A stretch of DNA of 64,000 nucleotides from contig CAYSAF010000002.1 in assembly GCA_964428965.1 (NCBI GenBank), forward strand, positions 20,985-84,984, given 5' to 3'. Every line of letters starts with the position of its first letter. The stretch's first letter is position 1. Shown in pieces: positions 2,689 through 49,529 of the stretch. Both the position numbers and the translations under genes were made by a program. This DNA is from Candidatus Woesearchaeota archaeon (lineage in GTDB: Archaea; Nanobdellota; Nanobdellia; SCGC-AAA011-G17; VGLX01). Under the pieces are notes generated by a model. It had not been told where the DNA came from, did no database searches, and worked only from the letters and a program-made list of their open reading frames with translations.

Positions 2689-2769
2689 GCCGCTAATTAA
2701 CAGAGGAACTGTTTATAAACTTTCTTTTAATGTTAAGTAAACTTTCTAAGTTTAATAGAGTATACAAAA

Positions 2770-3939
2770 ATGAATTCTTGGTTAATAGAAAATATTATAA
2801 ACAAACGCATACTTGAGGGCGTTATGAATATTTTATTCGTTACGCACAGCGGAAGCACACATCACAGATTCATGGAACTCTACTCTGAAATAGCAAACAA
2901 AGTGGTAATTCTCGGATATGAAAAATATAAAAAAAATCTTGAGTTTGAATATGAACAGATAAGGGACAAGAGCAAAATAAAAGTCTATTACACACCCACG
3001 TTAATGAAATACCCAATTATGACGTCGAGAATAATAAAAAAAGAAAACATAGACCTCATAATATCACACTGCCCGATATCAGGAACAGCGGCAACGCTTG
3101 CAAACATATTCAAGAAAAAGAGGCATGCACTAATCCTGTGCATGGATCCTGTAGCGTGTTACAGGGAAGGCACAAAAGAAAACATCATAATAAGAACAAT
3201 TAAGATAGGAATATTAAAATTGCTGTTAAATATATCCTTCAGGAATGCTGAACTGGCAGTTGCGAGCACAGAGTTAAAGAGGCAGTCAGAAAAATACGGA
3301 GCAAAAAATATACTGATCATACCGAGTTACGGTGTCAGCAAAATATTCAAACCGGCAAAAAAGGATGAGGGTATAATAAAAAAATATAACCTAAAAGGAA
3401 ATAAAACTCTGCTAAGCATAACAAGATTAACGCCTGAAAAAGGCACAAAATATGCTATACTTGCGCTAGGTGAAATAAAAAAAGACATACCAAACACTAA
3501 ACTGATAATACTAGGCAAAGGGCCTGAAGAAGAAGATTTAAAGAACCTTGCACGAAAACTTAACATAGAGAAAGATGTTATACTTCTAGGACATCTAAGA
3601 TTTAATGAAATGCCAAAATACTATAATACGGCAGACGTTTACGTACAACCAAGCTTAAGCGAAGGATTGGGGCTGGCACCTGGAGAAGCAATGGCCTGTA
3701 AAAAGCCAGTTGTAGCAACCAACGTAGGAGGGATACCGGATATAGTGATAGACGGAAAAACAGGACTTCTTGTAAAACCGAGGGATCACATAGCAATAGC
3801 AGAAGCTGTGAAAAGAATGCTCATGGATGAGAAACTCGCAAAAAATCTAAGCGAGAACGGCTATAAACACATAAAAGAAAACTTCGAAGAGGACCAAGCC
3901 CTAAAAAGATTTGTTAATTTCCTAAAACATGGAAATTAA
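2770..3939 (+). CDS. Glycosyltransferase family 4. The start may instead be the internal ATG at 2824 (MNILFVTH...).
   Basis: C-terminal motif 'EGLGLAPGEAMACKKPVVATNVGGIPDIVIDGKTGLLVKP'. N-terminal Rossmann-like 'ILFVTHSG'. Confidence 0.8.
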   Translation: MNSWLIENIINKRILEGVMNILFVTHSGSTHHRFMELYSEIANKVVILGYEKYKKNLEFEYEQIRDKSKIKVYYTPTLMKYPIMTSRIIKKENIDLIISHCPISGTAATLANIFKKKRHALILCMDPVACYREGTKENIIIRTIKIGILKLLLNISFRNAELAVASTELKRQSEKYGAKNILIIPSYGVSKIFKPAKKDEGIIKKYNLKGNKTLLSITRLTPEKGTKYAILALGEIKKDIPNTKLIILGKGPEEEDLKNLARKLNIEKDVILLGHLRFNEMPKYYNTADVYVQPSLSEGLGLAPGEAMACKKPVVATNVGGIPDIVIDGKTGLLVKPRDHIAIAEAVKRMLMDEKLAKNLSENGYKHIKENFEEDQALKRFVNFLKHGN

Positions 3940-4459
3940 AAAACTAAATCTAGGAAGCGGACTAAAACCGTTCAGAGGGTTCATCAACTTAGACATTAAA
4001 AAATACCCCGGCGTTGATGTGGTACACGACCTAGAAAAATTTCCATACCCATTCAAAGACAACACATTTGACTACGTACATGCGGAAGATGTCATAGAAC
4101 ACCTAACCAACATACCAGAAGTGATGAAAGAGATACACAGAATAAGCAAACCAGGTGCGGTGGTTGAAATAAAAGTGCCTTATTTCAGAAGCGAATCAGC
4201 ATTTGACGACCCCACACATAAAACCTTCTTCACATACAAAACCTTTGACCACTTCACAAACAAAATCCATCCAGAAGTACCCATGAAAATATACCTTTTT
4301 GATTATTTAAAAAAAGAATTTAAGTTCAGAAAAAGCTACAAGGTTATAGGCATAAGCCTGCTGGCAAAGAGATTCCCGCATTTTTACGAAACGCTTTTAT
4401 CCCACATATTCCCGGCAGGCGGTATGGACATAGTTTTAAGGGTGAGAAAACAAAAATAA
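3929..4459 (+). CDS. Small class I SAM-dependent methyltransferase-like protein. It is a paralogue of 14769..15281.
   Basis: 'LNLGSG' glycine-rich motif and a 'DYVHAEDVIEHL' post-motif. It overlaps the upstream GT4 stop by 11 nt. Confidence 0.5.
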   Translation: MEIKKLNLGSGLKPFRGFINLDIKKYPGVDVVHDLEKFPYPFKDNTFDYVHAEDVIEHLTNIPEVMKEIHRISKPGAVVEIKVPYFRSESAFDDPTHKTFFTYKTFDHFTNKIHPEVPMKIYLFDYLKKEFKFRKSYKVIGISLLAKRFPHFYETLLSHIFPAGGMDIVLRVRKQK

Positions 4460-4511
4460 ATCAAACGACTGTCTTGATAAAAAAACATCCAGCAAGAATA
4501 TACCTTTAAAT

Positions 4512-5435
4512 TCATTCGTGTTTTGTATCGTATTTAAGTTTCCAATCCACGTATTCTTTTAACAAACCATCAAAATCTGTATTTGGCTTCCAACCAAGTT
4601 CTAAAGCCTTAGTATTGTCACATAAAAATTCATGAACCTCTCCCGGTCTCGGTTCCGTGTGTACCGGCTTCATACTGTCTTTACCAAATAACCTGATCAT
4701 TTTCGTGGCAAGTTCATTTATAGATATATTTTTACCCAGCCCAACGTTAAACTCTTTCCCCCAATGATCCCCTTTTCTAAGCATCAGCATGTAAAAATTG
4801 ATAGCATCCCTGTAATCCATAAAATCCCTTTTTTGGGTCCCATCGCCAAATATTACAGGTGGTTTATCAGCGGCGAGCCTATCTGCGAATTTGGCAATAA
4901 CCGCTCCCCATTTATCATCGCTTTGGTATTTGCCAAAAGTATTAAAATTACGAACTATAACAACAGGTAGCCCGTATGAATAATGATAAGCTTTGCATAA
5001 ACCATCTGCACCCATTTTAGCAGCAGCATATGGGCTCTTTGGGTGCATAACGTGACTCTCATCCATTTTTCCATTACTTTTCTTATCGCCGTATATTTCT
5101 GTTGAAGATGCGAAAATAACGGGAATATCAAGCTTTCTTCCTATTTCCAAAACTCCCAAAGTTCCTATTGTATTGACCTGTACTGTGTCTTCAGGGTCTA
5201 TTAAAGATTTTTCAACATTTATTTGCGCAGCAAGGTGGACTATGTAATCACAATTTTGTATTATGTTATAGTGCTTACTTATATTTCTAACATCCTCTTT
5301 TATAAATTCCCCTTTTCTAAACCTGCACGGGTGGGATAAATTGTCAATACCTATGACACTATGCCCTTCGCTGATTAACTTTTCCTTTAGATGCGTACCA
5401 ATAAAACCCTCAGAACCTGTGATAAGAACATTCAT
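4512..5435 (-). CDS. NAD-dependent nucleotide-sugar epimerase/dehydratase of the SDR family
   Basis: N-terminal 'MNVLITGSEGFIGTHL' Rossmann motif. YxxxK is present as 'YAAAK'. This is the RmlB/GalE-like family. Confidence 0.8.
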   Translation of the reverse strand: MNVLITGSEGFIGTHLKEKLISEGHSVIGIDNLSHPCRFRKGEFIKEDVRNISKHYNIIQNCDYIVHLAAQINVEKSLIDPEDTVQVNTIGTLGVLEIGRKLDIPVIFASSTEIYGDKKSNGKMDESHVMHPKSPYAAAKMGADGLCKAYHYSYGLPVVIVRNFNTFGKYQSDDKWGAVIAKFADRLAADKPPVIFGDGTQKRDFMDYRDAINFYMLMLRKGDHWGKEFNVGLGKNISINELATKMIRLFGKDSMKPVHTEPRPGEVHEFLCDNTKALELGWKPNTDFDGLLKEYVDWKLKYDTKHE

Positions 5436-5613
5436 CCATTTGCCCCTCTTTTTATGCCTCTAAAAAATATACCGATGCCATTTCTTACTCTTAAATATGA
5501 AACCTTTCTCACACCCATTACCCTTACGTTATACTTATTTAAATTTTTTGGTAATTGAAAACTCAATTGCTCGTATCGTGTTTATTGCTAAATTTTATTC
5601 GCGCGTTAAGAAA

Positions 5614-7182
5614 TCATTTAGGCACGAACTTCTTCCCCCTCATTATCTTCCAGTAAATCCTGTTATTCCTAACAAACTCGTAAGGCTTTTCCACCATGTA
5701 ATGCTCGAATAAAGGGTGAACTTTATAGGCAGCTTTTGAAGAATACAACAATGCATACATGAAAATCCTTATCAAAGTAGCACGGAACTTGTCACCGCTA
5801 TCGCTAGACTTCCTGTCTATAAACTGCTTGTTAACAAACCTTTCAGCCTCCCTAATCTTCTTCTTAACACTCCTGTTGTAGTTAAAGAATCCTGACTTGT
5901 CCAACATGCCGTGATCGTTAAAGAAAATCTTCCTAAAAATTGGTTGTGGATAAACTCTATCATAACCAGTAAACCTGTCAAGTTTCAACCACCAGTTCTC
6001 AAAGCCATAATTATCTTTGTAAGTTTCATAAATTTCTGTACCGGGATAAGGAACTAGGATGCCGCCACGCATTATAAGGTAGACGTAAGGGCTCAACTCC
6101 TTCATGACCTTTATGGTCCTATCTATATGAGTAGGCGTCTCCCAAGGAAATCCATACATGAAGGTTACTGTGCAGGGAAGCCCCAAGTCATAAGTCATTT
6201 TAACCACTTCTCTTGCCTTCTCAACCGTAAACAAAGGACCTTTTTTAACAAGCTTCAACGTTTCATTATCACCGCTCTCGATACCGTAAGTAATCCTGGT
6301 GCAGCCAGCAGCCTTTATCTCCTCTAAAAGCTCCCTGGTTACGAAATCAAGACGAGAGTGACAAGCCCAAGTAACACCTTCAAGCTCAGGCTCTTTCTTC
6401 AAAAGCTTGCAAAACTCCTTAATCCTCGCTAGGTTAATAGAAAAAGAGTCATCGATAAAGTTAAAATGAGAAACCCCGTATTTGCGTTTAAGAGAAACCA
6501 TCTCTGCTATAACATTCTTAGGACTCCTGAACCTGTAATGACGACCACCTATGATGTTACAACAAAAAGTACAGCTGTAAGGGCAACCCCTGCTTGTCAG
6601 GATTTGACCTGCGAAACAATCAACCTCCTCCTTTGTGCGAGCGTAGTCATCGATATTAAAAAGGTCACGAGCAGGAAAGGGTATCTTATCGAGGTTTGTG
6701 ACCAGTTTAGCAGGATTTGTAAAAACAACCTTACCTTCATTCTTGAAAGCAATTCCGTCAACATCCTTAAGCTTCTTCTTTCCCTCATAGAACTTAGCCA
6801 GTTCAAGAACCGTGTTTTCAGCCTCCCCCAAAGCAACTATATCAACGCCGTTATCAAGAACCTCTTTAGGAACTATGGTTGGGTGTGGCCCTCCTGCTAA
6901 AATCTTTATGCTTGGAAATCTTTGCTTGACCTTCTTTATCATATCATAGCTCAAAATAACCCTGTAACTCATCATGATAAAACCAACAAATGAGGGTTTG
7001 AACTTTTCAATCATATCAAGAATCTGATCATCGGTATAAGAAGCATGGAATGCGGAACCGTCAAAAAGCTTGACATCATACCCATTTTTCCTCAAAACAG
7101 CAGCAAGATAACCTACACCTAAAACAGGCGAGTTACTCTTAGCAGGAGAGTTGCTGTGTATGAAAAAAAACTTAGGCTTCAT
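5614..7182 (-). CDS. B12-binding domain radical SAM protein (class B rSAM)
   Basis: The N-terminal cobalamin-binding-like domain reads 'FFIHSNSPAKS...LAGGPHPT'. The radical SAM cluster motif is 'SRGCPYSCTFCCN'. Confidence 0.75.
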   Translation of the reverse strand: MKPKFFFIHSNSPAKSNSPVLGVGYLAAVLRKNGYDVKLFDGSAFHASYTDDQILDMIEKFKPSFVGFIMMSYRVILSYDMIKKVKQRFPSIKILAGGPHPTIVPKEVLDNGVDIVALGEAENTVLELAKFYEGKKKLKDVDGIAFKNEGKVVFTNPAKLVTNLDKIPFPARDLFNIDDYARTKEEVDCFAGQILTSRGCPYSCTFCCNIIGGRHYRFRSPKNVIAEMVSLKRKYGVSHFNFIDDSFSINLARIKEFCKLLKKEPELEGVTWACHSRLDFVTRELLEEIKAAGCTRITYGIESGDNETLKLVKKGPLFTVEKAREVVKMTYDLGLPCTVTFMYGFPWETPTHIDRTIKVMKELSPYVYLIMRGGILVPYPGTEIYETYKDNYGFENWWLKLDRFTGYDRVYPQPIFRKIFFNDHGMLDKSGFFNYNRSVKKKIREAERFVNKQFIDRKSSDSGDKFRATLIRIFMYALLYSSKAAYKVHPLFEHYMVEKPYEFVRNNRIYWKIMRGKKFVPK

Positions 7183-7234
7183 AAGTTACCACCTACAAAC
7201 TGATATTTTTAGATTTAAATAACTTTTTATGGTG

Positions 7235-8803
7235 TTAAGGTTCTAAGAACCTCCTGAAAAACTTTATACGACCAAGTAAGTTATAGCCGAACTTCTTCTG
7301 TATAGCATCTACAATCATCAGGTCCTCTTTTGAAAATGCCTTTGTGAAAAAGAGGAATAAGAGGTAAAGCAATGAGGCAACAAGTGAGAGTATGACAATT
7401 ATGTAGATGCTAACTGTATTAACAAAGAAATTAAGCACCAAGAACGTAACCAGGATTGCAACACCACTTCCAACCAGACTCTTTAAGAAATAATGCAACT
7501 TGAAGAATTTAACATGAGCAAAACGGTAACTCTCAACAAGGATAAGGATGCTCAATAAGATGTAAGAAAGGGAAGTGACGAACGCAGCACCGTTAACACC
7601 GTATCTGGGAATAAGGAATATGTTTAGGATGGCAGCAAAGACGGTTACAACCAGATAATTAAAGAAAATGAGCTTAGTCTTCCCCACAACCATCAGAATA
7701 TTCTGAAAAGCCATGGCAGCGGAGTAAACGAAAAAACCTATGGAAAGCATGATTAGGGCTAAGTAACCAGCAGAGTACACCTGACCGAAAAAAACCCCGA
7801 GAAAGTCTTTAGAGAAAAAGAGGATCAGACTCAGGGGCAACAAGGTAAGGATAAATATCCATTTAGTTGTTATCTGACAGATCGATTCAAAGGATGATTT
7901 CTCACCTCTTGCGTAAAGCTCTGTTAGTATAGGTAGGAACAAAGCCAAAAAGGCATAAGGGATTAACAAAATAAGCTGGGCTGTGGGGTAGGCAGCATTA
8001 TACACCCCCACATCAGAAGCGTTCTTGAAGTAACCAAGCATCCAGGTATCGATAGAGCCGAGAATTATTATGAAAAAACTGCTAAGAACAAGGGGCCAGG
8101 AGTAAGAAAGGAGCTCTTTGTTGATGTAAAGAGGAACCACCTTACCCCTGAATATAGGATAAACCTTCTTCTCAAGAAAATACAAAGTGAATATGAAGGC
8201 TAAGAACACTGCAAAGACATAAGCAACCGTGAGGCCTATAACGCTGACACCAAGGTAAATGAGAACAGCGCTGAGAATTAACTTGGAAGATGTTTCGATT
8301 ATGTTTCGAGTGTAAACTTCGTACTGCAGCTTCTGAAACGCCTCGAAGGCTGCATAGAAAATGAAGTTAAGAGCTGCAAGAGGTATTACCAAAGCAACCA
8401 ACTTGAATATCAAGCTTAGCTTATCGTAATCTATATGAGGAAAAAAGGTTTGACTAATCCAACCAGAAAAGACAAAGAACAGGAAAGCAATCAGCAAACC
8501 AAGGAACAAGGTGACTCTTGAAGCAAAAAGCACAACCCCCCTTATGTGAGAATCGTCTTCTTTACCCCGATAATATGAAACGTACCGCAAAACACCGTTG
8601 TTCATTCCAAGGGTTGCAAAAATCGCTAGAAACCCGATAAAGGAAAGACCCAAGCTGAGTATACCGTACTGCTCTGTACCGGTCCTAGCAATCATCAACC
8701 TATAAAAATAAGTAAAAAGCTTAGAAATAATCAAGCCAGCTAGATAGATACCAGCTCCCTTCACCAACTCCTTCAGAGGCCTTTCGATGGTTTTCATATT
8801 CAA
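7235..8803 (-). CDS. Polysaccharide/oligosaccharide flippase of the MOP/Wzx-like family
   Basis: About 12-14 TM helices over 522 aa. The typical Wzx N-terminus 'LKELVKGAGIYLAGLIISKL' is present. Confidence 0.65.
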   Translation of the reverse strand: MNMKTIERPLKELVKGAGIYLAGLIISKLFTYFYRLMIARTGTEQYGILSLGLSFIGFLAIFATLGMNNGVLRYVSYYRGKEDDSHIRGVVLFASRVTLFLGLLIAFLFFVFSGWISQTFFPHIDYDKLSLIFKLVALVIPLAALNFIFYAAFEAFQKLQYEVYTRNIIETSSKLILSAVLIYLGVSVIGLTVAYVFAVFLAFIFTLYFLEKKVYPIFRGKVVPLYINKELLSYSWPLVLSSFFIIILGSIDTWMLGYFKNASDVGVYNAAYPTAQLILLIPYAFLALFLPILTELYARGEKSSFESICQITTKWIFILTLLPLSLILFFSKDFLGVFFGQVYSAGYLALIMLSIGFFVYSAAMAFQNILMVVGKTKLIFFNYLVVTVFAAILNIFLIPRYGVNGAAFVTSLSYILLSILILVESYRFAHVKFFKLHYFLKSLVGSGVAILVTFLVLNFFVNTVSIYIIVILSLVASLLYLLFLFFTKAFSKEDLMIVDAIQKKFGYNLLGRIKFFRRFLEP

Positions 8804-9855
8804 AACCTACTGTAAGACTTTTTACCCTTCAACCTAGAAGAAAATACCCTCCCAAGTTTCCTAGAAAGATAGTAAGAAAGCTTAACAGGCTCATTAAAAC
8901 CCGGCCAACCATAACCCTCATTACATTTGGCACACATCTCATTGTTTCCAAACTTATTGGTTATGTGTTGGTGCCTTAGCGTTCTCATGTTCAAGTTATT
9001 CCAAACATCCTCTAAAGACTCCCTTTTCAAATCACCAACGACATACTTACCGTCATAGTCGTAACAGCAAGGAACAACGCGACCGTCCCAGAGTACAGTT
9101 AAGTAATGCCAAGGGGTGAAACAGGGATATATGCTCTTCTCCTTAATCATCTTCGAAGTAGACTCGTCAGCTAGACTGAGCAATGGGTTGATACCAAAAC
9201 TGGAAAACTGCTTTATGACAGTGCCATCAACCCCTGGAATTTGCCATTTCTTCCTAAAGGTGTCAACTTGATTCTTTGTCAACTCCATGTAAATCAGACC
9301 AACTTCTATGTGTGGCTTGTCTGATTTCCTCTTAACCTTTAAATCTGCCAGGTACTCTATGTTAGAAATAGCTTTGCTGTAGTTTGCGCCAGCACCCCTA
9401 ACCTTTTTGTAAGACTCGTCATCAACAGAGTCAAGAGCTATGTAGAGATAATCAACCCCAGAGCCTATCACCTTCTCAGATATTTTTGGGGTGAGGAGTG
9501 TAGGGTTAACAGAAAAATAAACTTTGATGCCCTTCTTGTGGCAGTAATCAACAAAGTCAAAAATTTGGGGGTGCATCAACGGATCACCAAAATGAAGCAA
9601 CTCTATATACTTATGATAAACCTTAACCTGGTCGATTATCTTTTTGAACAACTCAAAGCCCATATTACCCACCTTCCTTTTCATGTACTGGCGAGGGCAC
9701 ATCACACACTTCATAGGGCAATTGTTTGTAGGCTCAAGATTAAGGATTAGTGGCTTGGAGTGAACCCTTTCAGACCTGCTAAAATAGGACAAAGCCTGGG
9801 CCAAGAAAGTGTAACCAACCTTTACTTTATTCCCTAAAAAAGATATTTTTTTCAT
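8800..9855 (-). CDS. Radical SAM protein with a C-terminal SPASM-like Cys-rich domain
   Basis: 'LEPTNNCPMKCVMCP' carries CxxxCxxC. C-terminal cysteines occur in 'VVPCCYDYDG...CAKCNEGYGW'. Confidence 0.7.
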   Translation of the reverse strand: MKKISFLGNKVKVGYTFLAQALSYFSRSERVHSKPLILNLEPTNNCPMKCVMCPRQYMKRKVGNMGFELFKKIIDQVKVYHKYIELLHFGDPLMHPQIFDFVDYCHKKGIKVYFSVNPTLLTPKISEKVIGSGVDYLYIALDSVDDESYKKVRGAGANYSKAISNIEYLADLKVKRKSDKPHIEVGLIYMELTKNQVDTFRKKWQIPGVDGTVIKQFSSFGINPLLSLADESTSKMIKEKSIYPCFTPWHYLTVLWDGRVVPCCYDYDGKYVVGDLKRESLEDVWNNLNMRTLRHQHITNKFGNNEMCAKCNEGYGWPGFNEPVKLSYYLSRKLGRVFSSRLKGKKSYSRF

Positions 9856-9930
9856 ACAGAGGATAGAAAAAATATTAAGTATTTAAATAACCTTCTATTC
9901 AAATTTGGAAAGATTAATATAAGTGGTGTA

Positions 9931-10704
9931 ATGAAAAATAAAGAGATTTTTATGAAAAACATTATGATAGTGGCAGCCCATCCAGATGACGAAGCGATAG
10001 GATGCGCAGCTAAAATAATCAGGACGGTAGCGGAAAAAGGGAAAGTAACAGTCGTTTACATAACAGACGGGGAATTCTACGAACAGAGTGAAGCAAGGAG
10101 GGAGGAAGCAAAAGAAGCGATGAAGATAGTCAGAGTAAAAAATCTTGTATTCCTCAAACACAAGGGTTCAGACTTAACAGATAAAACGTCTGTGGATAAC
10201 CTAATTGAAACAGTAAAAATGCTAATAGAAAAAAACAAAGCAGGCGAGGTTTACGTACCAGCATTCGAAGGCGGAAACTATGAGCATGACATAACAAACT
10301 ACATAGTCAGCCAAGCAGCAGAAGGGTTGAAAGAAAAAATCTTAGTCTACGAGTTCCCGATGTACAACAACAAGCTGAAGATGTTCCTAAAAAGATGCAC
10401 GAGAAGGGCAAGGCGGCTAAGCGGATTAGGATTCTACACATTCCCGCCAGAATTCCCAAACAAAAAAGGAGAAACGATAATTCTTAATATGAGTCCGGAA
10501 GAAATGCAAATAAAAAAACAAATGCTAGAAACATATAAGTCACAAAACGGGAACAAAATCCTGCTAAAATGTTACATGTACCCTGACAAGTACAGGGTAT
10601 GCCCAAAACATGATTACAGAAAAAAACCGCACGGTATAATACCATTGATCTACGAAACAAACACAAAGTTGAGATTCAAAGACTTCAAGAAGGTGCTGAG
10701 ATGA
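9931..10704 (+). CDS. PIG-L/LmbE family N-acetylglucosaminyl deacetylase
   Basis: 'IMIVAAHPDDEAIGCAAKI' is the LmbE signature 'AHPDDE'. Confidence 0.8.
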   Translation: MKNKEIFMKNIMIVAAHPDDEAIGCAAKIIRTVAEKGKVTVVYITDGEFYEQSEARREEAKEAMKIVRVKNLVFLKHKGSDLTDKTSVDNLIETVKMLIEKNKAGEVYVPAFEGGNYEHDITNYIVSQAAEGLKEKILVYEFPMYNNKLKMFLKRCTRRARRLSGLGFYTFPPEFPNKKGETIILNMSPEEMQIKKQMLETYKSQNGNKILLKCYMYPDKYRVCPKHDYRKKPHGIIPLIYETNTKLRFKDFKKVLR

Positions 10705-11855
10705 ACATCCTGCTGATGGTTAATGACATGATGTGGCCCAACAGGGGAGGTGGGGCTCCAAGAGTTGACTCTGTTGCAAAAGCATTCAAGAGGGCAGGAC
10801 ACAAAGTCGTGATGTTTGCACCTATAGGAACTGACAAAAAGGAAGCTGAAGAGGCTTTGGGATATGAAGTTATACCTATGAAATACATAAACAGGAATGA
10901 CCCCAAGAAGATAATAAAATATGGCATTAACAACCCCTTCTTAACAATAAAAGCGATAGGCATAATGAGAGATAAGAACATAGACTTGGTGTTTGCGCAT
11001 AACGCAATTTGCGGCTTCCCAGCACTCGTAGCAGCAAAGTTGCTGAAGAAAAAAATGGTTTTCGACCCAACAGACTTTGTGGCTGAATTCGTAAGCGACA
11101 GCATGGGGAACAAAGGATTCAAAAAAGGTTTGCTGAATATTGTAGGCCAGCTTGAAGCGTGGACCATTAAAAATGCAGACAGGGTGATAACAAACACAAA
11201 AACAATAGCTGAAATACTTGAAAAGAAATACGGAAGGAAAGTTGATGTTGTTTATGACTGCGTAAACTTTGATGTATTCCACCCAATTAAAACAAAAAAA
11301 GAAAAAGAGTTCACATACATACTTCAAGGAGGGATGGATCCTCAAGACGGCTTAGAAATACTCATACCAGTTGCAAAAGAGCTGAAAAAAGAAAAAATCA
11401 AATTCAAAATACTTCTTGTTGGCGACGGCAAAGTAGTGCCTATATTAAAGCAAAAGATAGAGCAAGAAAAGATGGACGAACATTTCAAATTCACGGGATG
11501 GGTCACACAAAAAGAGGTTAATGAACTGACAGCAAAGTCTGACGTCGGCTTGGTTATACTCCCAAACAAACTTTCAGGAAGGGTAAGACTCACGCTGAGG
11601 GCGCTAGAGTACTGGGCTTGCGGAAAACCAATAATAGCAGCAGACCTAGATGCCGTCAGAGAGGTGGTAAAACATGAAGAGAACGGATTACTGTACAAAG
11701 CGGAAAACACCTATAGTTTAACACAACAAATGATAAAAATAAACAAGGACAAAAAACTATACAACAAAATAGCCAGAAATGGAAAGGAAAAAGTAAAAGA
11801 ATTCGAAAGCAAAAGGTTGGGGGACCAAATAGCAAACATAATTCTGGAACGATGA
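10701..11855 (+). CDS. Glycosyltransferase family 4
   Basis: GT1 two-domain pattern, with the C-terminal domain 'LEYWACGKPIIAADLDAVREVVKHEENGLLYK'. The start overlaps the upstream stop in an ATGA arrangement. Confidence 0.7.
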   Translation: MNILLMVNDMMWPNRGGGAPRVDSVAKAFKRAGHKVVMFAPIGTDKKEAEEALGYEVIPMKYINRNDPKKIIKYGINNPFLTIKAIGIMRDKNIDLVFAHNAICGFPALVAAKLLKKKMVFDPTDFVAEFVSDSMGNKGFKKGLLNIVGQLEAWTIKNADRVITNTKTIAEILEKKYGRKVDVVYDCVNFDVFHPIKTKKEKEFTYILQGGMDPQDGLEILIPVAKELKKEKIKFKILLVGDGKVVPILKQKIEQEKMDEHFKFTGWVTQKEVNELTAKSDVGLVILPNKLSGRVRLTLRALEYWACGKPIIAADLDAVREVVKHEENGLLYKAENTYSLTQQMIKINKDKKLYNKIARNGKEKVKEFESKRLGDQIANIILER

Positions 11856-13249
11856 AAATAGTGTTGCTGTATCCGAGAATGGAGAACATAAAGGAGATTA
11901 TGACAACTAGGCCTCCCCTAGGTCTGGCTTACTTAGCAGCATCGCTTGAAAGAGAAGGCCATGAAGTAAGAATAATAGATTTAAACATAGAAAAAGTGGA
12001 CATGGGAGAAGAAATCAAAAAATACGACCTGATAGGAATATCCGTGTTAACCGTGTTCTACAATGAAGTAAAAAACTTAATAAAAAAAATAAGGGAAGCA
12101 GACAAAAAAATTCCGATAGTTCTAGGCGGGCCACACATAACCATGATGACAAAACAAGTTATGGAAGAGAACGACGTAAACTTCGCAGTAAGATACGAGG
12201 GGGAAGAAACGATAGTGGAACTTGCAAGAGAACTGGAACAGAAAAAGGACTTCTCAAAAATAAAAGGACTTGCCTACAAGGACAAAGACCGTGTGATAAT
12301 AAACCAAGACAGGGAGTTCAACAAAAATCTCGACGGGATACCAATGCCAGCAAGACACCTTCTAAAGATAAACGAATACGTAAGTTACATGGAAAATGAA
12401 AAATCAACAACCATTCTCACCAGCAGGGGTTGCCCTTATGCCTGTGTCTACTGCTGTAAAACAGAAGGCAGAATGTGGAGGGCTATGAGCGCAAAAAGAG
12501 TAGTCGACGAAATGGAAGAAATATACAAACAATACAACATAAAAGTAATCTACATAGAAGACGACCTTTTCACGTTGGACAAGAAGAGGGTTATAGAAAT
12601 ATGCGGAGAGATAAAAAAAAGAGAACTAAACATAAAATGGATATGCATATCAAGAGTTGACAACGTGGACATAGAAACCCTAAAAGCGATGAAAGGGGCA
12701 GGGTGCATAGAGATAAATTACGGGGTTGAGAGTGGAGACGAGGATGTACTAAAAAAGGTAGGGAAGGGAATAACCTTAGAACAGGCAGAAAACGCATTCA
12801 GGACAACAAAGGAAGCAGGGATAAAAACAAAAGGATACTTCATAATAGGCCTACCATGGGACACTAAGGAAACCGTAGAAAAAACAATAGAATTTGCTAC
12901 AAAGCTCAACGCAGACGAGATACAGTTCAGCATATGCACACCACTACCAGGAACCCCGCTCTGGGAACTGGCTATAAAAGAAGATGCATTGAATCCAAAC
13001 GAAGTGAACTGGGACAACTTCGCATTGATGAGCGCAGACATCGACGGCAAGGTGTATTTCACAAAAAACCTCACAGCAGAAGAGATAATAAAGCTGAGAA
13101 AAAAAGCATACAGAAAACTGATAACTAGAACTTTTTTAAGAAAAATAAAGGAGGGGGATATAAAAACCATCTTAGGCATAATAAATCAGAAGAGAAGGGT
13201 AGGCCTTGGCAAATTCGTAAGGAAAGTGTTTTTACCCTTGGTATGCTAA
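11852..13249 (+). CDS. B12-binding domain radical SAM protein, paralogue 2
   Basis: 'MKIVLLYPRMEN...VLGGPHITM' is the B12-like domain. 'SRGCPYACVYCC' is the rSAM motif. The start overlaps the upstream stop by 4 nt. Confidence 0.75.
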   Translation: MKIVLLYPRMENIKEIMTTRPPLGLAYLAASLEREGHEVRIIDLNIEKVDMGEEIKKYDLIGISVLTVFYNEVKNLIKKIREADKKIPIVLGGPHITMMTKQVMEENDVNFAVRYEGEETIVELARELEQKKDFSKIKGLAYKDKDRVIINQDREFNKNLDGIPMPARHLLKINEYVSYMENEKSTTILTSRGCPYACVYCCKTEGRMWRAMSAKRVVDEMEEIYKQYNIKVIYIEDDLFTLDKKRVIEICGEIKKRELNIKWICISRVDNVDIETLKAMKGAGCIEINYGVESGDEDVLKKVGKGITLEQAENAFRTTKEAGIKTKGYFIIGLPWDTKETVEKTIEFATKLNADEIQFSICTPLPGTPLWELAIKEDALNPNEVNWDNFALMSADIDGKVYFTKNLTAEEIIKLRKKAYRKLITRTFLRKIKEGDIKTILGIINQKRRVGLGKFVRKVFLPLVC

Positions 13250-13298
13250 AAGAAACGTTTTTAAACAAAGGAGTGATTTCAAGAATCTGACTTTTTAG

Positions 13299-14768
13299 GT
13301 GACACTTATGATTAAAACTATGCTCGTATACCCAAGTCCGACAAGGCATGCCATACCCCCATTAGGTATAGCTTACCTAGCATCGATCATCAGGAGTAAA
13401 AGATATGAAGTCAGCATCCTTGATTCCAACGTAGTTAAAGATGAGGAAGATTTTTCTAGGAGAGTCAAAGATTATAACCCTAATTTGATTGGGTTTTCTG
13501 TACAAACCATGTTTATCGATCACGCATTTAAGTATGCAAAAATAGCCAAAGAGAGTGTTCCTAATGCAGTCGTGATTTTCGGGGGGCCACATGCAAGTGT
13601 GATGCCAAAAGAAGTTTTAAATGAACCTTATGTGGACATGTGCATGATAGGCGAGTCAGACATCAGCTTCTTACAACTGATTGAAGCCTTGGACAATGGA
13701 AGAGGCCTTGAAGAAGTTGGCAATCTTTACTACAAAGACAAAAAAGGCCAGATAAAGTTTACAAAAAGACTTCCTTTCATAGAAAACCTTGACAGTATAC
13801 CCCCACCAGCAAGGGATTTATTGCCTATGCAGCACTACTTAAAAAACATCCAACCACCCCCTCTAATGATGCCTTACACACACGTAATAGTAAACAGGGG
13901 ATGCCCGTTCAACTGCAAATTCTGCCAACCCACTTCAGACGTTATGTGGGGGAAGAGGATAAGATACAGGAGTCCGAAGTTGATATGCGATGAAATAGAG
14001 TACCTGCTAAAGAATTATAAGCTCAACATGATAGACATAACAGCTGATACTTTTACAGCGAACAAGGAGTGGGTAAAAGAACTTTGTGGAGAGATTATAA
14101 GGAGGAAGATAAAAATACCATGGATTGCGACAGCTAGGGTGGGTACGGTAAACTACGAGACATTAAGCGAAATGAAAAAGGCTGGATGCATATCAATATT
14201 TGTTGGTGTAGAGTCTGGCTCGCAAAAAATACTCGACGAACTGGGGAAGGGTATAAAAGTTGAACAGATAATACAATACTTCAAATGGTGCAACCAGCTC
14301 GGTATAATAACTAACACTTCGTTTATGGTTGGAAGCCCTGGAGAAACAAAAGAAACCATCAAGGAAACAATAGACCTGATAAAAAAAATAAGGCCGGATT
14401 ACCTAACAGCCTACATTACAACACCTATGCCCGGGACAGACCTTTACAGTTATGCATTCGAGCATGGCATGCTAGAATATCAGAGCATGACTGAAATGGA
14501 CAAGCATCATAGCACCCTAAAAATCGAGGGACTTACAAAAGAAGAGATAATCTATTACAGGGATAAGATTTACATGGAATATGCAAAGCTGAGACTGAAG
14601 TACCTTTTTGACCCCAGGAAAGCATACCTCCACAAATCGATGTTCAAAAGAATTTTAACCCTGAGACATGCAAATTTAAAATCCGCAAAGAAATCTTATC
14701 AGTTATTACATACACCTCACAAGAATCCTGCAAAAAAAATAATAGAGATGGTTATAAAGGCGGTTTAG
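13299..14768 (+). CDS. B12-binding domain radical SAM protein, paralogue 3
   Basis: 'FGGPHASVMP' is the B12-like domain. 'NRGCPFNCKFCQ' is the rSAM motif. Confidence 0.75.
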   Translation: MTLMIKTMLVYPSPTRHAIPPLGIAYLASIIRSKRYEVSILDSNVVKDEEDFSRRVKDYNPNLIGFSVQTMFIDHAFKYAKIAKESVPNAVVIFGGPHASVMPKEVLNEPYVDMCMIGESDISFLQLIEALDNGRGLEEVGNLYYKDKKGQIKFTKRLPFIENLDSIPPPARDLLPMQHYLKNIQPPPLMMPYTHVIVNRGCPFNCKFCQPTSDVMWGKRIRYRSPKLICDEIEYLLKNYKLNMIDITADTFTANKEWVKELCGEIIRRKIKIPWIATARVGTVNYETLSEMKKAGCISIFVGVESGSQKILDELGKGIKVEQIIQYFKWCNQLGIITNTSFMVGSPGETKETIKETIDLIKKIRPDYLTAYITTPMPGTDLYSYAFEHGMLEYQSMTEMDKHHSTLKIEGLTKEEIIYYRDKIYMEYAKLRLKYLFDPRKAYLHKSMFKRILTLRHANLKSAKKSYQLLHTPHKNPAKKIIEMVIKAV

Positions 14769-15281
14769 ATGAAAAAAATAAAACTAGAAACAAAACCAGG
14801 AGAAAAAAAGATAGTTGAATTCGGACCTGGAAGGAACCCTAGAGAGGATGCAAACATTTTTGTAGACCTAGACCCTAAACTCATAAAAGGGCTGAGAAAC
14901 CCCATAGTCTGGGACCTAAATAAGCTACCGCTACCCTTTGAAAATGATTCCATAGACAAGATATACTTGGACAGCGTTGTAGAACACCTTGATGTACCAC
15001 TGGCATTATTCATGAAGGAAATCTGGAGAATACTCAAATATGGAGGGGAGGCAGAACTTTTGCTACCAAACACCTACTTCTTAACCAAAAGAGTTATGTT
15101 CATGATAGGGATACTACACAACAACTTCAGGCCACAACATAGAAAATACGTCAATTACAGCTTTGTCTGGCACACAATAAAGGAAGCAGGGTTCTGGGTA
15201 GAAAAAGAACCATACAAGTTCCTGCCATTCAAAAACCTGCTGCTTCCAAGGATAGAGATGATCCTAAAAAAAGAGCCCTGA
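14769..15281 (+). CDS. Small methyltransferase-like protein. It is a paralogue of 3929..4459.
   Basis: It shares 'E(F/L)GPG', '(F/L)P(Y/L)PF(K/E)(D/N)(N/D)' and 'EHL' blocks with the 3929..4459 product. It starts immediately after the B12-rSAM stop. Confidence 0.45.
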   Translation: MKKIKLETKPGEKKIVEFGPGRNPREDANIFVDLDPKLIKGLRNPIVWDLNKLPLPFENDSIDKIYLDSVVEHLDVPLALFMKEIWRILKYGGEAELLLPNTYFLTKRVMFMIGILHNNFRPQHRKYVNYSFVWHTIKEAGFWVEKEPYKFLPFKNLLLPRIEMILKKEP

Positions 15282-15284
15282 AAA

Positions 15285-16511: not shown

Positions 16512-16513
16512 GT

Positions 16514-17491
16514 TTATACCTTAAATTCCTCTTTAAACACCTTCTTAACGTACTTGAACTCTTCTATGAAAACCACCAATACCAGAAGAAGGAAAGCATA
16601 TGGTATAGGTACGACTATAAGGTCCTGACTTAGAATAACCTCTTTGGGAACGTTTAGCTTACTATAAAAAAACAGTATGGACAGTTCAACGAAACCGAGA
16701 CCGTTAAAAGTAATGGGAATTAGGGTGACCACAGCACAAAAATTTGTAATCAAAAATATGTAAAGGGGGTTAACGTAAACGCCAAGGCCCAGGAAAATGA
16801 AGTAACTCATGAAGGCGAGGGAAAACCACTTGGTTACTGACACAAAAAAGTTGATAAGCAATACCTGAGGCTTATTCTTTAAAAGGAAAAATAAAAGCTT
16901 TGAAAAACCTTCAAAATGGATTGAGTAAGACCTCAACAGGTACCGACGTATCAGATAGCGCCCCTTTTCAGAGAAGAAAAAGAAGACCGCAACAAAAAAG
17001 ACGAATGATAAAACAAGGACCAAACCTAAGATTAAGTTCTTGGGTATAACGAAAATAAAGAGGGCCACCAAAGCAGCTATTGAAACAGCGATAAAAGAGA
17101 TGAACTTATCCAAAAAAGAAATGGCAGCGCCTTGGCCTAGGGGGATACTTTCTTTTCTCAAGAAATAAAGCATAGAGAACTCACCTATCCTGCCAGGGGT
17201 CAACATGCCCGTGGCCAAACTGAGGAGGTAATACTTGAAAAGATTCCAAAAACCTAATCCGAAACCGGAAGCCCTTACCAGTATATACAAACTGTAAACT
17301 CCCCCTAAGTAGGATAAAAAAACAAATGGAGGTATAGCCAAAAGATATATCAACTTGAAGTTTTTAAAAGCGCTAAAAATCTTATCAAAACCTACGTAAT
17401 AAAATATGACCAGTACAAACAACAAACCAAAAATAAGCTTAAAGATGTTCTTAGCCTTCATTTTACCTCTTTTTATAAAATTTGACAGCAT
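16514..17491 (-). CDS. UPF0104/LPG-synthase-TM-like integral membrane protein. It is flippase-like and is often partnered with polyprenol-phosphate GT2 genes.
   Basis: About 8 TM helices. It lies adjacent to a DPM-synthase-like GT2 on the same strand. Confidence 0.45.
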   Translation of the reverse strand: MLSNFIKRGKMKAKNIFKLIFGLLFVLVIFYYVGFDKIFSAFKNFKLIYLLAIPPFVFLSYLGGVYSLYILVRASGFGLGFWNLFKYYLLSLATGMLTPGRIGEFSMLYFLRKESIPLGQGAAISFLDKFISFIAVSIAALVALFIFVIPKNLILGLVLVLSFVFFVAVFFFFSEKGRYLIRRYLLRSYSIHFEGFSKLLFFLLKNKPQVLLINFFVSVTKWFSLAFMSYFIFLGLGVYVNPLYIFLITNFCAVVTLIPITFNGLGFVELSILFFYSKLNVPKEVILSQDLIVVPIPYAFLLLVLVVFIEEFKYVKKVFKEEFKV

Positions 17492-17509
17492 TTAAATTTT
17501 ATCAAAAAG

Positions 17510-18397
17510 CTACTTCCTGTTCATGTCAGCCAAAAATCCGAACAAGACTATCTGGACACCGGTAATTATGAGGAGCATAGTGAGGATAGTAGAAGGAAGG
17601 TGACCGACAACGCCTGTTGTCAAAAAAAGATAAACAAGCCAGAGGCCAAGCAAAAACCCCGTGAGAATAAAAAAAGCACCAACCCAACCAAAAAACTTCA
17701 AAGGCTCATAGTCACGGTAAATCCTCAGGATGTTTATCCAAGCACGGAAGGCATACTCAAAGGGGCCCTTCATCAACCTGCTCTTACCATACCTCTTAGC
17801 AAAATAGACAGGCACCTCAACCACCCTAAACTTCTGGCGCACAGCCTTTATTATCTGCTCCTGGGTGTAAGTATGACTTGAAGTCAAAACTATAGACTCG
17901 GCAACCCTCCTCGTGAAAGCCCTAAAACCGGTCTGACAATCACTTATCCTCATACGAATTATTCTTGATATCACATTAGAAAAAGCAACGTTGCCAAGAC
18001 GCTTGATCCAGGGCATATACTCTATTTTGCCCCTAAACCTCGAGCCGAGAACAAGGTCGTAGCCAAGCCCTATAGGTTCTAATAATCTCGGCATGTCAGA
18101 AGCGAGATACTGGCCATCAGCATCTGTGTGAAGAATAACGTCAGCACCTATCTTCAAGCAAGCCTGAATCTCTGTCCTGAAGGTCTCGGCAAGACCGTAG
18201 TTGATAGGATGAGAAACAACCATTGCACCAGCCTCTCGAGCAACTCTGGCAGTAGCATCCCTGCTGCCATCATCAACCACCAAAACCTTGTAATCGTACT
18301 TGGTTCTGTCCATGACCTGCTTTATATCAGACACCAATCTACCAATAGTCCTCTGCTCGTTGTAAGCCGGAATCGTAATCATAACCTTCATGGCCAC
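17510..18397 (-). CDS. GT2 polyprenol/dolichol-phosphate sugar synthase (DPM1/AglD-like) with a C-terminal TM anchor
   Basis: 'VMITIPAYNEQRTIGRLV', 'VLVVDDGSRD', a DAD motif 'HTDADGQY', and two C-terminal TM helices. Confidence 0.75.
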   Translation of the reverse strand: MAMKVMITIPAYNEQRTIGRLVSDIKQVMDRTKYDYKVLVVDDGSRDATARVAREAGAMVVSHPINYGLAETFRTEIQACLKIGADVILHTDADGQYLASDMPRLLEPIGLGYDLVLGSRFRGKIEYMPWIKRLGNVAFSNVISRIIRMRISDCQTGFRAFTRRVAESIVLTSSHTYTQEQIIKAVRQKFRVVEVPVYFAKRYGKSRLMKGPFEYAFRAWINILRIYRDYEPLKFFGWVGAFFILTGFLLGLWLVYLFLTTGVVGHLPSTILTMLLIITGVQIVLFGFLADMNRK

Positions 18398-18403
18398 TCT
18401 ACC

Positions 18404-48190: not shown

Positions 48191-48448
48191 GTGTGTGTAT
48201 CTAATTACACACAAAATAAAATGAAACCTACAAAAAATGAAATTTTAGAACGTTTAGGAAGAATAAATGAAGAAATTAGTTCTTTAAACAAGCTACTCAA
48301 AAAATATGCCAAAGGGAATAATGAAAGTTTTAGATGCGAAAAATGTAATTCTTCATTTGTTTATATTAGAAGAAAAGATAAAAAACTTCTTTGTAGAAAA
48401 TGTGGGAGTATACAGGATATTAAGATAGATGAGATAGAAAATGATTGA
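48191..48448 (+). CDS. Small zinc-ribbon protein
   Basis: 'FRCEKCNSSFVY...LLCRKCGSIQD' has two CxxC pairs. It lies just upstream of the Mrr-like gene. Confidence 0.45.
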   Translation: MCVSNYTQNKMKPTKNEILERLGRINEEISSLNKLLKKYAKGNNESFRCEKCNSSFVYIRRKDKKLLCRKCGSIQDIKIDEIEND

Positions 48449-49526: not shown

Positions 49527-49529
49527 AAA

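Follow-up and report, generated by a model that had tools for sequence, protein, structure and literature searches.

What do radical S-adenosylmethionine (SAM) enzymes do in the midst of glycosyltransferase (GT) genes? This question is raised by a 64,000-nucleotide stretch of DNA from a Candidatus Woesearchaeota archaeon (contig CAYSAF010000002.1), hereafter called the window, in which an earlier note, made from the sequence alone, had described three paralogous B12-binding radical SAM enzymes and a fourth radical SAM protein within a GT/flippase cluster. The genes in question belong to a locus of about 20 kb (bases ~600 to 20,100 of the window) comprising five transcription units. We consider it probable that this cluster is a glycan assembly locus in which lipid-linked sugars are tailored by radical SAM enzymes. 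The component of this reading that we hold most firmly, and with good confidence, is that the radical SAM enzymes are glycan tailoring; that the three B12-binding (class B) enzymes perform C-methylation specifically is a tentative proposal, to which we give somewhat less than an even chance.

The host is a DPANN archaeon, belonging to the Nanoarchaeota sensu GTDB (Nanoarchaeia/Woesearchaeota-type). A PCNA gene (52452-53201) marks it as an archaeon, and the assignment to DPANN follows from the closest named relatives of this PCNA, which come from a metagenome-assembled genome (MAG) of a 'Ca. Nanoarchaeia archaeon' (83% identity) and then from Nanoarchaeota and Woesearchaeota MAGs. The contig is of metagenomic origin; Rfam found no rRNA in the window, the sole RNA gene being a tRNA-Ser(CGA).

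Domains were assigned by Pfam and NCBIfam profile scans of the open reading frames (ORFs) of the window, and paralogy was assessed by BLASTP. The cluster reads as follows, with rSAM1 to rSAM3 denoting the three B12-binding radical SAM proteins and SDR the short-chain dehydrogenase/reductase family.

598..2688, minus strand: GT-C-like polytopic membrane protein (PTPS_related/YfhO C terminus) of 696 residues; PF10131 at 38 bits (cut-off 26.4), weaker PF09586; candidate outer-face glycan transferase or polymerase
2770..3939, plus strand: GT4-2770, a BshA/MshA-like retaining GT of family GT4; Glycos_transf_1 E=1.6e-50; NCBIfam BshA 119 bits, under cut-off
3929..4459, plus strand: small class I SAM methyltransferase of 176 residues; Pfam Methyltransf_11/23
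4512..5435, minus strand: SDR-family nucleoside diphosphate-sugar epimerase/4,6-dehydratase, ending the leftward operon; GDP_Man_Dehyd/Epimerase E~1e-58; NCBIfam dTDP-glucose 4,6-dehydratase 175 bits and LegB 170, both under cut-off
5614..7182, minus strand: rSAM1, radical SAM protein with a B12-binding domain, 522 residues; PF02310 75.8 bits, PF04055 85.4 bits
7235..8803, minus strand: Wzx/MOP-family flippase for lipid-linked oligosaccharides; Pfam Polysacc_synt, MatE, MurJ
8800..9855, minus strand: Twitch-type radical SAM enzyme of 351 residues, opening the leftward operon; Pfam Radical_SAM and SPASM (PF13186)
9931..10704, plus strand: PIG-L/LmbE-family N-acetylhexosamine deacetylase, opening the rightward operon; PIG-L 72.6 bits, weak BshB1/Mca/MshB
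10701..11855, plus strand: GT4-10701, the conserved partner of rSAM2; Pfam Glycos_transf_1 and Glyco_transf_4
11852..13249, plus strand: rSAM2, radical SAM protein with a B12-binding domain, 465 residues; PF02310 87.0 bits, PF04055 86.8 bits
13299..14768, plus strand: rSAM3, radical SAM protein with a B12-binding domain, 489 residues from a GTG; PF04055 98.7 bits, PF02310 75.1 bits; the start is probably the ATG at 13308 (486 residues), as in the ENA gene call
14769..15281, plus strand: small class I SAM methyltransferase of 170 residues; Pfam Methyltransf_11 26.5 bits
15285..16511, plus strand: GT4 ending the rightward operon; Glycos_transf_1 114 bits and Glyco_transf_4; NCBIfam matches all under cut-off
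16514..17491, minus strand: LPG_synthase_TM 'flippase-like' membrane protein; PF03706 88.9 bits, TIGR00374 82.5 bits (cut-off 43.2); candidate flippase for a polyprenyl-phosphate-sugar
17510..18397, minus strand: GT2-17510, an AglJ/DPM1-like polyprenyl-phosphate hexose (or N-acetylhexosamine) synthase; Pfam Glycos_transf_2; NCBIfam AglJ 173 bits (cut-off 325), dolichyl-phosphate hexose transferase 121, PpgS 115, ArnC 83
18404..20134, minus strand: GT-C (PMT_2/ArnT-like), predicted to use a polyprenyl-phosphate-sugar at the outer face; PMT_2 38 bits (cut-off 26.1)

The neighbors of the radical SAM genes are those named in the earlier note, namely, GT4 genes, a PIG-L/LmbE deacetylase, a Wzx-like flippase, an epimerase/dehydratase, and two small methyltransferases, the latter being paralogous (37% identity over 90 residues). 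The junction sequences place the four radical SAM genes in two divergent operons that flank a 75-bp spacer (9856-9930). Leftward, the order is Twitch gene, Wzx, rSAM1, and SDR; rightward, it is PIG-L, GT4, rSAM2, rSAM3, methyltransferase, and GT4. Two of the radical SAM genes had been described as translationally coupled to flanking GT4 genes, and this applies to one of them: the start of rSAM2 overlaps GT4-10701 in an ATGA (11852-11855), the sole overlap between a radical SAM and a GT4 gene in the window, GT4-10701 itself having a 4-nucleotide overlap at each end. By contrast, rSAM3 abuts a small methyltransferase gene (stop at 14768, ATG at 14769), which ends 3 nucleotides before the GT4 gene at 15285, and rSAM1 is uncoupled from both of its neighbors, with gaps of 52 and 178 nucleotides. 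The Twitch gene and Wzx overlap by 4 nucleotides if Wzx starts at a TTG, and the methyltransferase gene 3929..4459 overlaps the upstream GT4 gene by 11 nucleotides.

The description of rSAM1, rSAM2, and rSAM3 as paralogous B12-binding radical SAM enzymes was borne out. Each carries an N-terminal PF02310 domain (75.1 to 87.0 bits, cut-off 32.1) followed by PF04055 (85 to 99 bits), which is the class B architecture, and pairwise identities of 36%, 35%, and 29% (E 1e-82 to 4e-62) mark them as old, divergent paralogues. There is one CX3CX2C motif per protein (CPYSCTFC at residue 200 of rSAM1, CPYACVYC at 194 of rSAM2, and CPFNCKFC at 202 of rSAM3), and the motif does not vary in the sequence alignment (A3). 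Besides the strong profile matches, the N-terminal B12-binding fold is supported by an AlphaFold (AF2) model of rSAM2, the sole class B protein modeled (predicted local distance difference test [pLDDT], 91.4). In Foldseek, this model superposed over its full length on MgmA, TsrM, AprD4, OxsB, CysS, and TokK, cobalamin-binding class B enzymes among them. No DxHxxG motif was found in rSAM1 to rSAM3, base-off binding having no diagnostic sequence motif; judging by the B12-binding domain, the three proteins presumably use cobalamin.

None of the NCBIfam cut-offs was reached by rSAM1 to rSAM3. HpnJ (TIGR03471, cut-off 577.6) was the top match of rSAM2 and rSAM3 over nearly their full length (235.2 and 225.2 bits), while rSAM1 matched ApyD (182 bits), BchE (174 bits), and HpnJ (170.8 bits) best. 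BchE (cut-off 481) gave 207 bits with rSAM2 and 197 with rSAM3. The three proteins also remained below the cut-offs of TsrM (51 to 75 bits, cut-off 500), PhpK (119 to 167, 600), HpnR (102 to 132, 650), MgmA (111 to 132, 360), AprD4 (83 to 141, 500), and the ladderane type (109 to 170, 360), and likewise of BzaD and ArsL. Membership in the HpnJ family was considered and rejected, because the scores lie under the cut-off and other homologues are more similar. In an all-versus-all BLAST, true HpnJ was 27 to 29% identical to rSAM2 (141 bits; 122 to 141 bits for rSAM1 to rSAM3 against P. graminis HpnJ), whereas rSAM2 reached 168 bits with BchE and 213 bits with a radical SAM protein from a cluster for a ribosomally synthesized and posttranslationally modified peptide (RiPP).

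Among solved structures, AprD4 (6fd2) was the best sequence match of all three proteins (E 6e-33, 1e-21, and 1e-19), followed by MgmA (9ccb), OxsB, TsrM, CysS, and TokK, and it also gave the best TM-score for the rSAM2 model (0.74/0.75, 4.1 Å over 464 columns in Foldseek). A split of methylases from nonmethylases by fold was tried and rejected, since Foldseek ranked these six structures within a narrow, uninformative band. Class B methylases and nonmethylases are reported to be inseparable by sequence or structure (PMC12931638). HpnJ, BchE, and the ladderane enzyme belong to the largest, unexplored class B group (PMC9204698, PMC12931638), while AprD4 and ArsL have the same fold without cobalamin (PMC12931638). 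By their sequences, rSAM1 to rSAM3 appear to be members of this large group, outside every characterized family tested. The step from class B membership to C-methylation, as the earlier note had taken it, was therefore not upheld: the cut-offs of TsrM and the other families are missed, the best NCBIfam matches include the nonmethylases HpnJ and BchE, and the best structural match is AprD4.

The fourth radical SAM protein (8800..9855) had been labeled SPASM, a label that has to be revised. Its CX3CX2C motif lies at residue 46, and only five cysteines follow the core (245, 263, 264, 308, and 311), all invariant in 24 homologues; the seven-cysteine SPASM pattern (CX9-15GX4C...CX2CX5CX3C...C) is not present, the CX2CX5CX3C block being absent. 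In an ungapped alignment of residues 240-313 with residues 164-237 of BtrN, the butirosin 2-deoxy-scyllo-inosamine dehydrogenase and founding Twitch radical SAM enzyme, C245, C263, C308, and C311 fall on C169, C187, C232, and C235, which we take to be the auxiliary-cluster ligands in the BtrN structure. The AlphaFold model of the protein (pLDDT 92.4) had BtrN as its best Foldseek match (E 3.5e-11, TM-score 0.72 on the target), followed by DesII, SuiB, anSME, and BlsE, so that three of the best structural neighbors (BtrN, DesII, and BlsE) act on carbohydrates. With four cysteines in register and a BtrN-like fold, the protein belongs to the BtrN-type Twitch enzymes, which have a single auxiliary cluster, unlike true SPASM proteins, which have two; the Pfam SPASM model picks up Twitch domains as well.

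The family of this Twitch enzyme is large. A word-indexed search made it look narrow, but a profile search returned 6843 clusters at 50% identity (E<=1e-30), among which we found no characterized member. In some relatives (P0398, P0403, P0435, P0482, P0405, P0492, P0504, and P0478), the enzyme is joined to a further domain of the hexapeptide acyltransferase, FkbM methyltransferase, AMP-binding (acyl-adenylate), or histidine-phosphatase type. Nanoarchaeota carry members within glycan loci (L032), and in the gammaproteobacterium Oceanicoccus sagamiensis the family is found in an O-antigen-like cluster (L033). The family appears to be a widespread glycan-tailoring enzyme of archaea and bacteria.

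The evidence that carries the glycan assignment is the recurrence of these associations elsewhere. In more than 10 independent loci, orthologues of rSAM2 or of the Twitch enzyme are operon coupled to GT4 or GT2 genes, to Wzx, and to a triad of GT2, flippase-like, and GT-C genes. Close relatives of rSAM2 are few (P0002-P0009, 47 to 78% identity), beyond which lies a very large, mostly bacterial family at about 40% identity, and every locus with a close relative is a glycan locus. The most informative loci, designated by L numbers, are the following.

L002: syntenic with the window; orthologues of rSAM1 (85%), rSAM3 (73%), and PIG-L (65%), and of GT4-10701 (76%) beside an rSAM2-type gene
L003: AglB, five GTs, a GT4-10701 orthologue (62%) beside the rSAM2 orthologue, LPG_synthase_TM, PMT_2
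L028/L029: B12-binding radical SAM gene, GT2, and rSAM2 orthologue in this order, with a 4-nucleotide overlap; faces an LPG_synthase_TM/GT2/PMT_2 triad
L030: methyltransferase gene, then rSAM2 orthologue; GT4, two SDRs, two nucleotidyltransferases
L031 (Nanoarchaeia MAG): orthologues of the YfhO-like protein 598..2688 (41%), GT4-2770 (43%), Wzx (44%), the Twitch enzyme (58%), PIG-L (43%), and GT4-10701 (50%, beside an rSAM2-type gene)
L054: PMT_2 facing an operon of GT2 (62% orthologue of GT2-17510), B12-binding radical SAM gene, and Twitch gene; downstream, an intein-bearing 4,6-dehydratase-type SDR, a nucleotidyltransferase, a DegT aminotransferase, a GT2, and a fusion of S-methyl-5'-thioadenosine phosphorylase (MTAP) with a phosphoribosyltransferase domain

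The rSAM2 orthologues of L002, L003, L028/L029, and L030 overlap a GT4, GT2, or methyltransferase gene by 4 nucleotides, and the GT4-10701/rSAM2 pair is preserved in the window, L002, L003, and L031 although gene order changes. L031 holds six radical SAM proteins within 19 kb. Three are B12-binding, of which two overlap GT4 genes (one of these is the GT4-2770 orthologue) and one immediately precedes PIG-L; besides the Twitch orthologue and one more radical SAM protein, the sixth is a 685-residue fusion (9125-11182, minus strand) of a GT2 domain (residues 15-224) with a Radical_SAM domain (residues 349-513, NirJ/SPASM-like). Recurrent operon coupling and this GT2-radical SAM fusion in a syntenic locus support the earlier proposal that the radical SAM genes belong functionally to the glycan cluster. 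Among the other cluster genes, the methyltransferase 3929..4459 has homologues in L002, L026, L039, and L104; Wzx orthologues adjoin the Twitch gene in L002, L031, L039, L047, and L071; the LPG_synthase_TM/GT2/PMT_2 triad is kept in L003 as well as in L028 and L029; and PMT_2 GT-C orthologues are found in L003, L028/L029, and L054.

A metagenome scan for Twitch homologues yielded 80 loci. Where the locus reached 8 kb or more and the Twitch homologue 39% identity or more, one to five B12-binding radical SAM genes were present in 11/15 cases, a figure with no formal background rate; among loci with more distant Twitch homologues, they were present in just 4/26. Gene orders included Twitch, GT2, and two B12-binding genes (L043), GT2 and a B12-binding gene (L047), and GT4, GT2, and a B12-binding gene (L039). 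In 22 distant loci (L004-L025; Omnitrophota, Planctomycetia, Desulfobacterales, and others), rSAM2 homologues 30 to 38% identical often stand in tandem arrays of two or three B12-binding radical SAM genes, and a GT2 best matching GT2-17510 lies within 10 kb of the homologue in 9 of the 22. The genome scan for close relatives found no homologue above 38% identity in the GTDB species representatives, so the lineage bearing the cluster is absent from these representatives.

Several features of the related loci are recorded here in their own right. In L003, PPDK_N and PEP-utilizer domains are joined to a cytidylyltransferase-like domain in a 973-residue protein (13039-15960; NCBIfam PRK05849, 886 bits). 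Two small genes separate its gene from the rSAM2 orthologue, which stands some 1.6 kb upstream. Also close by is a CDP-alcohol phosphatidyltransferase gene, followed immediately by the GT4 orthologue and, at a distance of about 2 kb, by the rSAM2 orthologue. Together, these genes hint, for the L003 lineage, at a lipid acceptor or at a substituent linked through phosphate. Intein-like inserts, with matches to LAGLIDADG_3 and Intein_splicing, split the SDR genes of L030 (5175-7208) and L054 (7252-9369). In L026, one 799-residue ORF (2979-5378) encodes both RadA (Rad51/RecA) and a B12-binding radical SAM protein, while L027, with the same neighboring gene, has them as two separate genes (2443-4980); the two may be truly fused in L026, or the difference may stem from read-through or assembly.

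What is observed are the family of each protein, the operon structure, and the linkage conserved between loci; from these we infer the sites, order, substrates, and chemistry of the following pathway of cell-surface glycan assembly. At the cytoplasmic face, the three GT4 enzymes and the AglJ-like GT2 would build polyprenyl-phosphate-linked sugars. Before export, these would be tailored by the three soluble class B enzymes and the BtrN-like Twitch enzyme, as well as by the PIG-L deacetylase (N-acetylhexosamine to hexosamine), the two small SAM methyltransferases, and the SDR epimerase/dehydratase; a cytoplasmic site of action is suggested for the four radical SAM proteins because they have no strongly hydrophobic segment (maximum KD19 <=1.24). 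Wzx would then flip the oligosaccharide and the YfhO/PTPS-like GT-C transfer it, while in a side branch a tailored polyprenyl-phosphate-monosaccharide would pass via the LPG_synthase_TM protein to the PMT_2 GT-C, following an ArnC/ArnT-like logic. In the class B step, a 5'-deoxyadenosyl radical would abstract hydrogen from an unactivated sugar carbon, which would receive a methyl group from methylcobalamin, as with MoeK5 and GenK. We favor C-methylation since most characterized class B members are methylases and MoeK5 offers a precedent on a lipid-linked sugar. The Twitch enzyme would oxidize a secondary alcohol of the sugar to a ketone like BtrN or act on an amino-deoxy sugar like DesII. The layouts of L054, where a B12-binding radical SAM gene is coupled to the GT2-17510 orthologue and followed by a Twitch gene, and of L028 make a polyprenyl-phosphate-monosaccharide a likely substrate, at least for the rSAM2-type enzyme.

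Plausible glycosylation targets of the cluster are encoded 6 to 10 kb away. A 752-residue protein (26313-28571, minus strand) with a signal peptide and a C-terminal transmembrane anchor has 31 N-X-S/T sequons versus 12.8 expected, and the adjoining gene (29245-31530, minus strand) encodes an S-layer-like protein (PF05124) with 8 sequons versus 7.6 expected. Given these genes and the AglB gene in the related L003, the contrast with a plain N-glycan pathway drawn in the earlier note is not warranted.

A number of observations weigh against the tailoring of lipid-linked sugars by class B enzymes. As rSAM1 to rSAM3 reach no characterized family's curated cut-off, their chemistry is extrapolated; whether a class B enzyme is a methylase cannot be read from sequence or fold (PMC12931638). 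The best solved-structure match of the three, AprD4, is a cobalamin-independent sugar diol-dehydratase, and cobalamin binding here is presumed from the B12-binding domain. DPANN archaea are, to our knowledge, not expected to make B12. Neither AglB nor an initiating phosphoglycosyltransferase was found in the window, its scanned ORFs having no match to STT3/AglB or Glycos_transf_4. Close orthologues of rSAM1 and rSAM3 occur in L002 only, and the neighborhoods of the related loci were labeled by BLAST against the window proteins, by which divergent genes are understated. Finally, the closest characterized homologues act on unrelated substrates (porphyrin, RiPP peptides, and a hopanoid sugar), as the earlier note had allowed, so that the glycan assignment rests on context and not on homology.

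Two other reactions on the sugar remain live alternatives, both of them unlikely in our estimation. One is ring contraction of the kind known from HpnJ and calditol synthase (Cds): GT4-10701 would add N-acetylglucosamine (GlcNAc) to an acceptor, either a lipid or a glycan, PIG-L would deacetylate it, and a class B enzyme would contract the pyranose, yielding the ether of a five-membered aminocyclitol (carbasugar). The order of PIG-L, GT4, rSAM2, and rSAM3 would suit such a scheme, as would the rank of HpnJ in the NCBIfam scans, the presence of all four hpnIJKL component families in the window, the LPG_synthase_TM gene that follows a genuine hpnJ-hpnI pair in L034, and the CDP-alcohol phosphatidyltransferase of L003, which hints at a lipid acceptor. 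However, the scores are far under the HpnJ cut-off, BchE and the RiPP-cluster protein are more similar to rSAM2 than HpnJ is, HpnI is a GT2 while the partner here is a GT4, PIG-L is not kept with the rSAM2 orthogroup (it is absent from L003, L028, and L030), and the LPG_synthase_TM gene sits in the separate, conserved GT2/GT-C triad, outside the radical SAM operon. About equally improbable is the second alternative, a cobalamin-free, AprD4-like reaction in which at least one of the 'B12' enzymes would dehydrate a sugar 1,2-diol and the SDR, like AprD3, would reduce the ketone to give a deoxy sugar. AprD4 is the nearest solved structure by sequence, TM-score, and root mean square deviation, rSAM1 is followed immediately by an SDR gene, with further SDRs in L030, L054, L064, L066, and L071, and the architecture can lack cobalamin (PMC12931638). 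Yet only the radical SAM core (residues ~160-400) is similar in sequence to AprD4, whose N-terminal domain scores -1.0 against rSAM3, whereas the N termini in the window match the Pfam B12-binding domain strongly and align with those of HpnJ and BchE; the NCBIfam AprD4 scores fall well short of the cut-off, and SDR genes abound in glycan loci of every kind.

More remote are readings in which sugars are not the substrate. The enzymes might act on the isoprenoid core or the polyprenol carrier, introducing rings, methyls, or cross-links, which we regard as very improbable. Indeed, B12-binding and SPASM/Twitch classes co-cluster in archaeal loci for the modification of glycerol dialkyl glycerol tetraethers (GDGT), whose enzymes are GrsA/B (B12-binding), Gmm (a B12-binding methylase), and Gms (SPASM/Twitch, defined by COG4001), and Gms and Gmm homologues exist in a few DPANN genomes (PMC11214058). 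Membrane-lipid-type genes are also near, namely, LPG_synthase_TM here and CDP-OH_P_transf in L003. Nevertheless, Pfam shows just Radical_SAM and SPASM in the 351-residue Twitch protein (COG4001 was not searched directly), no Tes match appeared among the best 25 NCBIfam families per radical SAM protein of the window (the library apparently has no Grs, Gmm, or Gms model), and TIGR04190 (Ta0216 family) scored at most 119 bits against a cut-off of 500. The conserved partners, moreover, are GTs, Wzx, sugar-nucleotide enzymes, the GT2-radical SAM fusion, and sugar-type tailoring fusions, and DPANN archaea, as far as we know, generally lack lipid biosynthesis. The least credible reading is that the radical SAM genes are unrelated to the glycan island and encode, e.g., RiPP maturases. 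The plasmid-borne homologue most similar to rSAM2 (33% identity, 213 bits) does lie in a RiPP-type cluster with PqqD, S8-peptidase, and ABC-transporter genes (L036), and ApyD, which heads the NCBIfam list of rSAM1, is a RiPP enzyme; but the window cluster has no gene for a precursor peptide, PqqD or RiPP recognition element, protease, or exporter, and the 4-nucleotide overlaps with GT, PIG-L, and methyltransferase genes, together with synteny across loci at 40 to 60% protein identity, argue for co-function.

If lipid-linked sugars are indeed tailored in this way, a broader picture becomes conceivable, which we put forward as a possibility only, well below the core proposal in likelihood: in Nanoarchaeia-type DPANN archaea, a protein- or lipid-linked surface glycan built by adding a sugar and then rewriting it by radical chemistry, each GT being paired, and in one lineage fused, with its own radical SAM enzyme, several sugars being C-alkylated, deoxygenated, or carbocyclic, and the surface being cobalamin dependent. 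Related clusters have up to 5 or 6 such enzymes. Were this true, the glycan would contain sugars unlike those described so far in any cell envelope, and the surface of a genome-reduced symbiont would depend on cobalamin acquired from the host or the surrounding community. The cell surface of DPANN archaea mediates their attachment to hosts, and from the locus a surface glycan of an undescribed type is predicted for these organisms, its exact chemistry being unreadable from sequence. Class B enzymes are among the largest enzyme groups of mostly unknown function, with the largest subgroup unexplored structurally and functionally (PMC12931638), and the conserved context suggests a substrate class for them, i.e., lipid-linked sugars made by adjacent, often overlapping, transferase genes; the GT2-radical SAM fusion is independent evidence of this linkage. 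Compact sets such as GT4-10701/rSAM2 or the GT2, B12-binding, and Twitch genes of L054 could be reconstituted directly.

Outside the cluster, the window holds further features. An MTAP gene (20226..21005, plus strand; TIGR01694 330.6 bits, cut-off 274.85) follows the GT-C gene. MTAP homologues are also found near B12-binding radical SAM genes in an unrelated Magasanikbacteria locus (L006, 7897-8658) and in L054 (13270-14574, the fusion mentioned above). The enzyme may be an accessory that clears 5'-deoxyadenosine and methylthioadenosine arising from many radical SAM enzymes, a presumed functional link to the cluster. A fifth radical SAM gene (42302-43426, plus strand) is of the KamA family (AblA, lysine 2,3-aminomutase, 448 bits, cut-off 525). 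At 48000-50000 the GC content falls to 28%, versus about 40% elsewhere, and the ORFs at 48441-50411 have no Pfam match; this segment may be foreign or fast-evolving DNA. A second small GT group (57276-60331, plus strand) encodes a GT2 of 414 residues, a 211-residue protein without assignment, and a Glyco_trans_1_3 GT (E 1e-102).

How does the locus compare with known systems? Its parts are of known kinds, namely, radical SAM enzymes of class B and of the Twitch type, and an Agl/Wzx-type glycan assembly; what appears to be undescribed is that transferases and radical SAM enzymes are paired in a modular and conserved way, in one case as a fusion of a GT with a radical SAM domain, in a primary surface pathway of a genome-reduced archaeon. 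With Agl N-glycosylation it shares cytoplasmic GTs acting on a polyprenyl-phosphate carrier, a Wzx-type flippase, an AglJ/AglD-like GT2 as dolichyl-phosphate-hexose synthase, and, in L003, an adjoining AglB; it differs in that the window has no AglB or AglH-type initiating enzyme. Among the Agl pathways described in the literature, we found none with B12-binding or Twitch radical SAM enzymes, and no literature linking such enzymes to archaeal or DPANN glycosylation clusters. The set of GT2, flippase-like protein, and GT-C recalls the three-component ArnC/ArnD/ArnT or PpgS systems, in which a lipid-linked sugar is tailored before flipping: ArnD tailors undecaprenyl phosphate-linked 4-deoxy-4-formamido-arabinose (Und-P-Ara4FN) between the ArnC and ArnT steps.

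The Twitch enzyme has its best sequence and structure match in BtrN for the C-terminal domain, with identical cysteine spacing (18/45/3 residues), and the BtrN substrate is a carbohydrate-like aminocyclitol. However, overall identity is 18%, the Twitch protein is 100 residues longer, with an N-terminal helix and an N-terminal core more like the NirJ/AhbD/tungsten-maturase type, and its gene lies in a glycan locus whereas that of BtrN lies in an aminoglycoside cluster. AprD4 shares the two-domain layout of rSAM1 to rSAM3 and acts on a sugar ring of a pseudo-oligosaccharide, but its cobalamin-free N-terminal domain is not alignable to the N terminus found here (shown for rSAM3). HpnI, HpnK, and HpnJ transfer GlcNAc, deacetylate it, and contract the ring to the bacteriohopanetetrol cyclitol ether, and a Cds reaction has been proposed in Sulfolobus (PMC13459092). 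The GT, PIG-L/LmbE, B12-binding radical SAM, and LPG_synthase_TM families of this system (with HpnL) are all in the window, and hpnJ-hpnI are translationally coupled like GT4-10701 and rSAM2, but a hopanoid pathway is not expected in an archaeon.

The closest parallels to our proposal are MoeK5 and GenK/GenD1, which share the class B layout of a B12-binding Rossmann domain and a CX3CX2C radical SAM core and act after a glycosyltransferase on an already attached sugar, as would rSAM1 to rSAM3. The substrate of MoeK5 is a phospho-lipid-linked monosaccharide and thus resembles the polyprenyl-phosphate-sugar proposed for the window cluster. Class B enzymes on lipid-carried sugars are represented elsewhere by MoeK5 (methylation) and HpnJ (ring contraction), which co-cluster in a similarity network (PMC9204698). 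Whereas MoeK5 and GenK belong to antibiotic clusters, however, the enzymes described here would serve a primary cell-surface pathway of an archaeon, with three paralogues each partnered with its own transferase.

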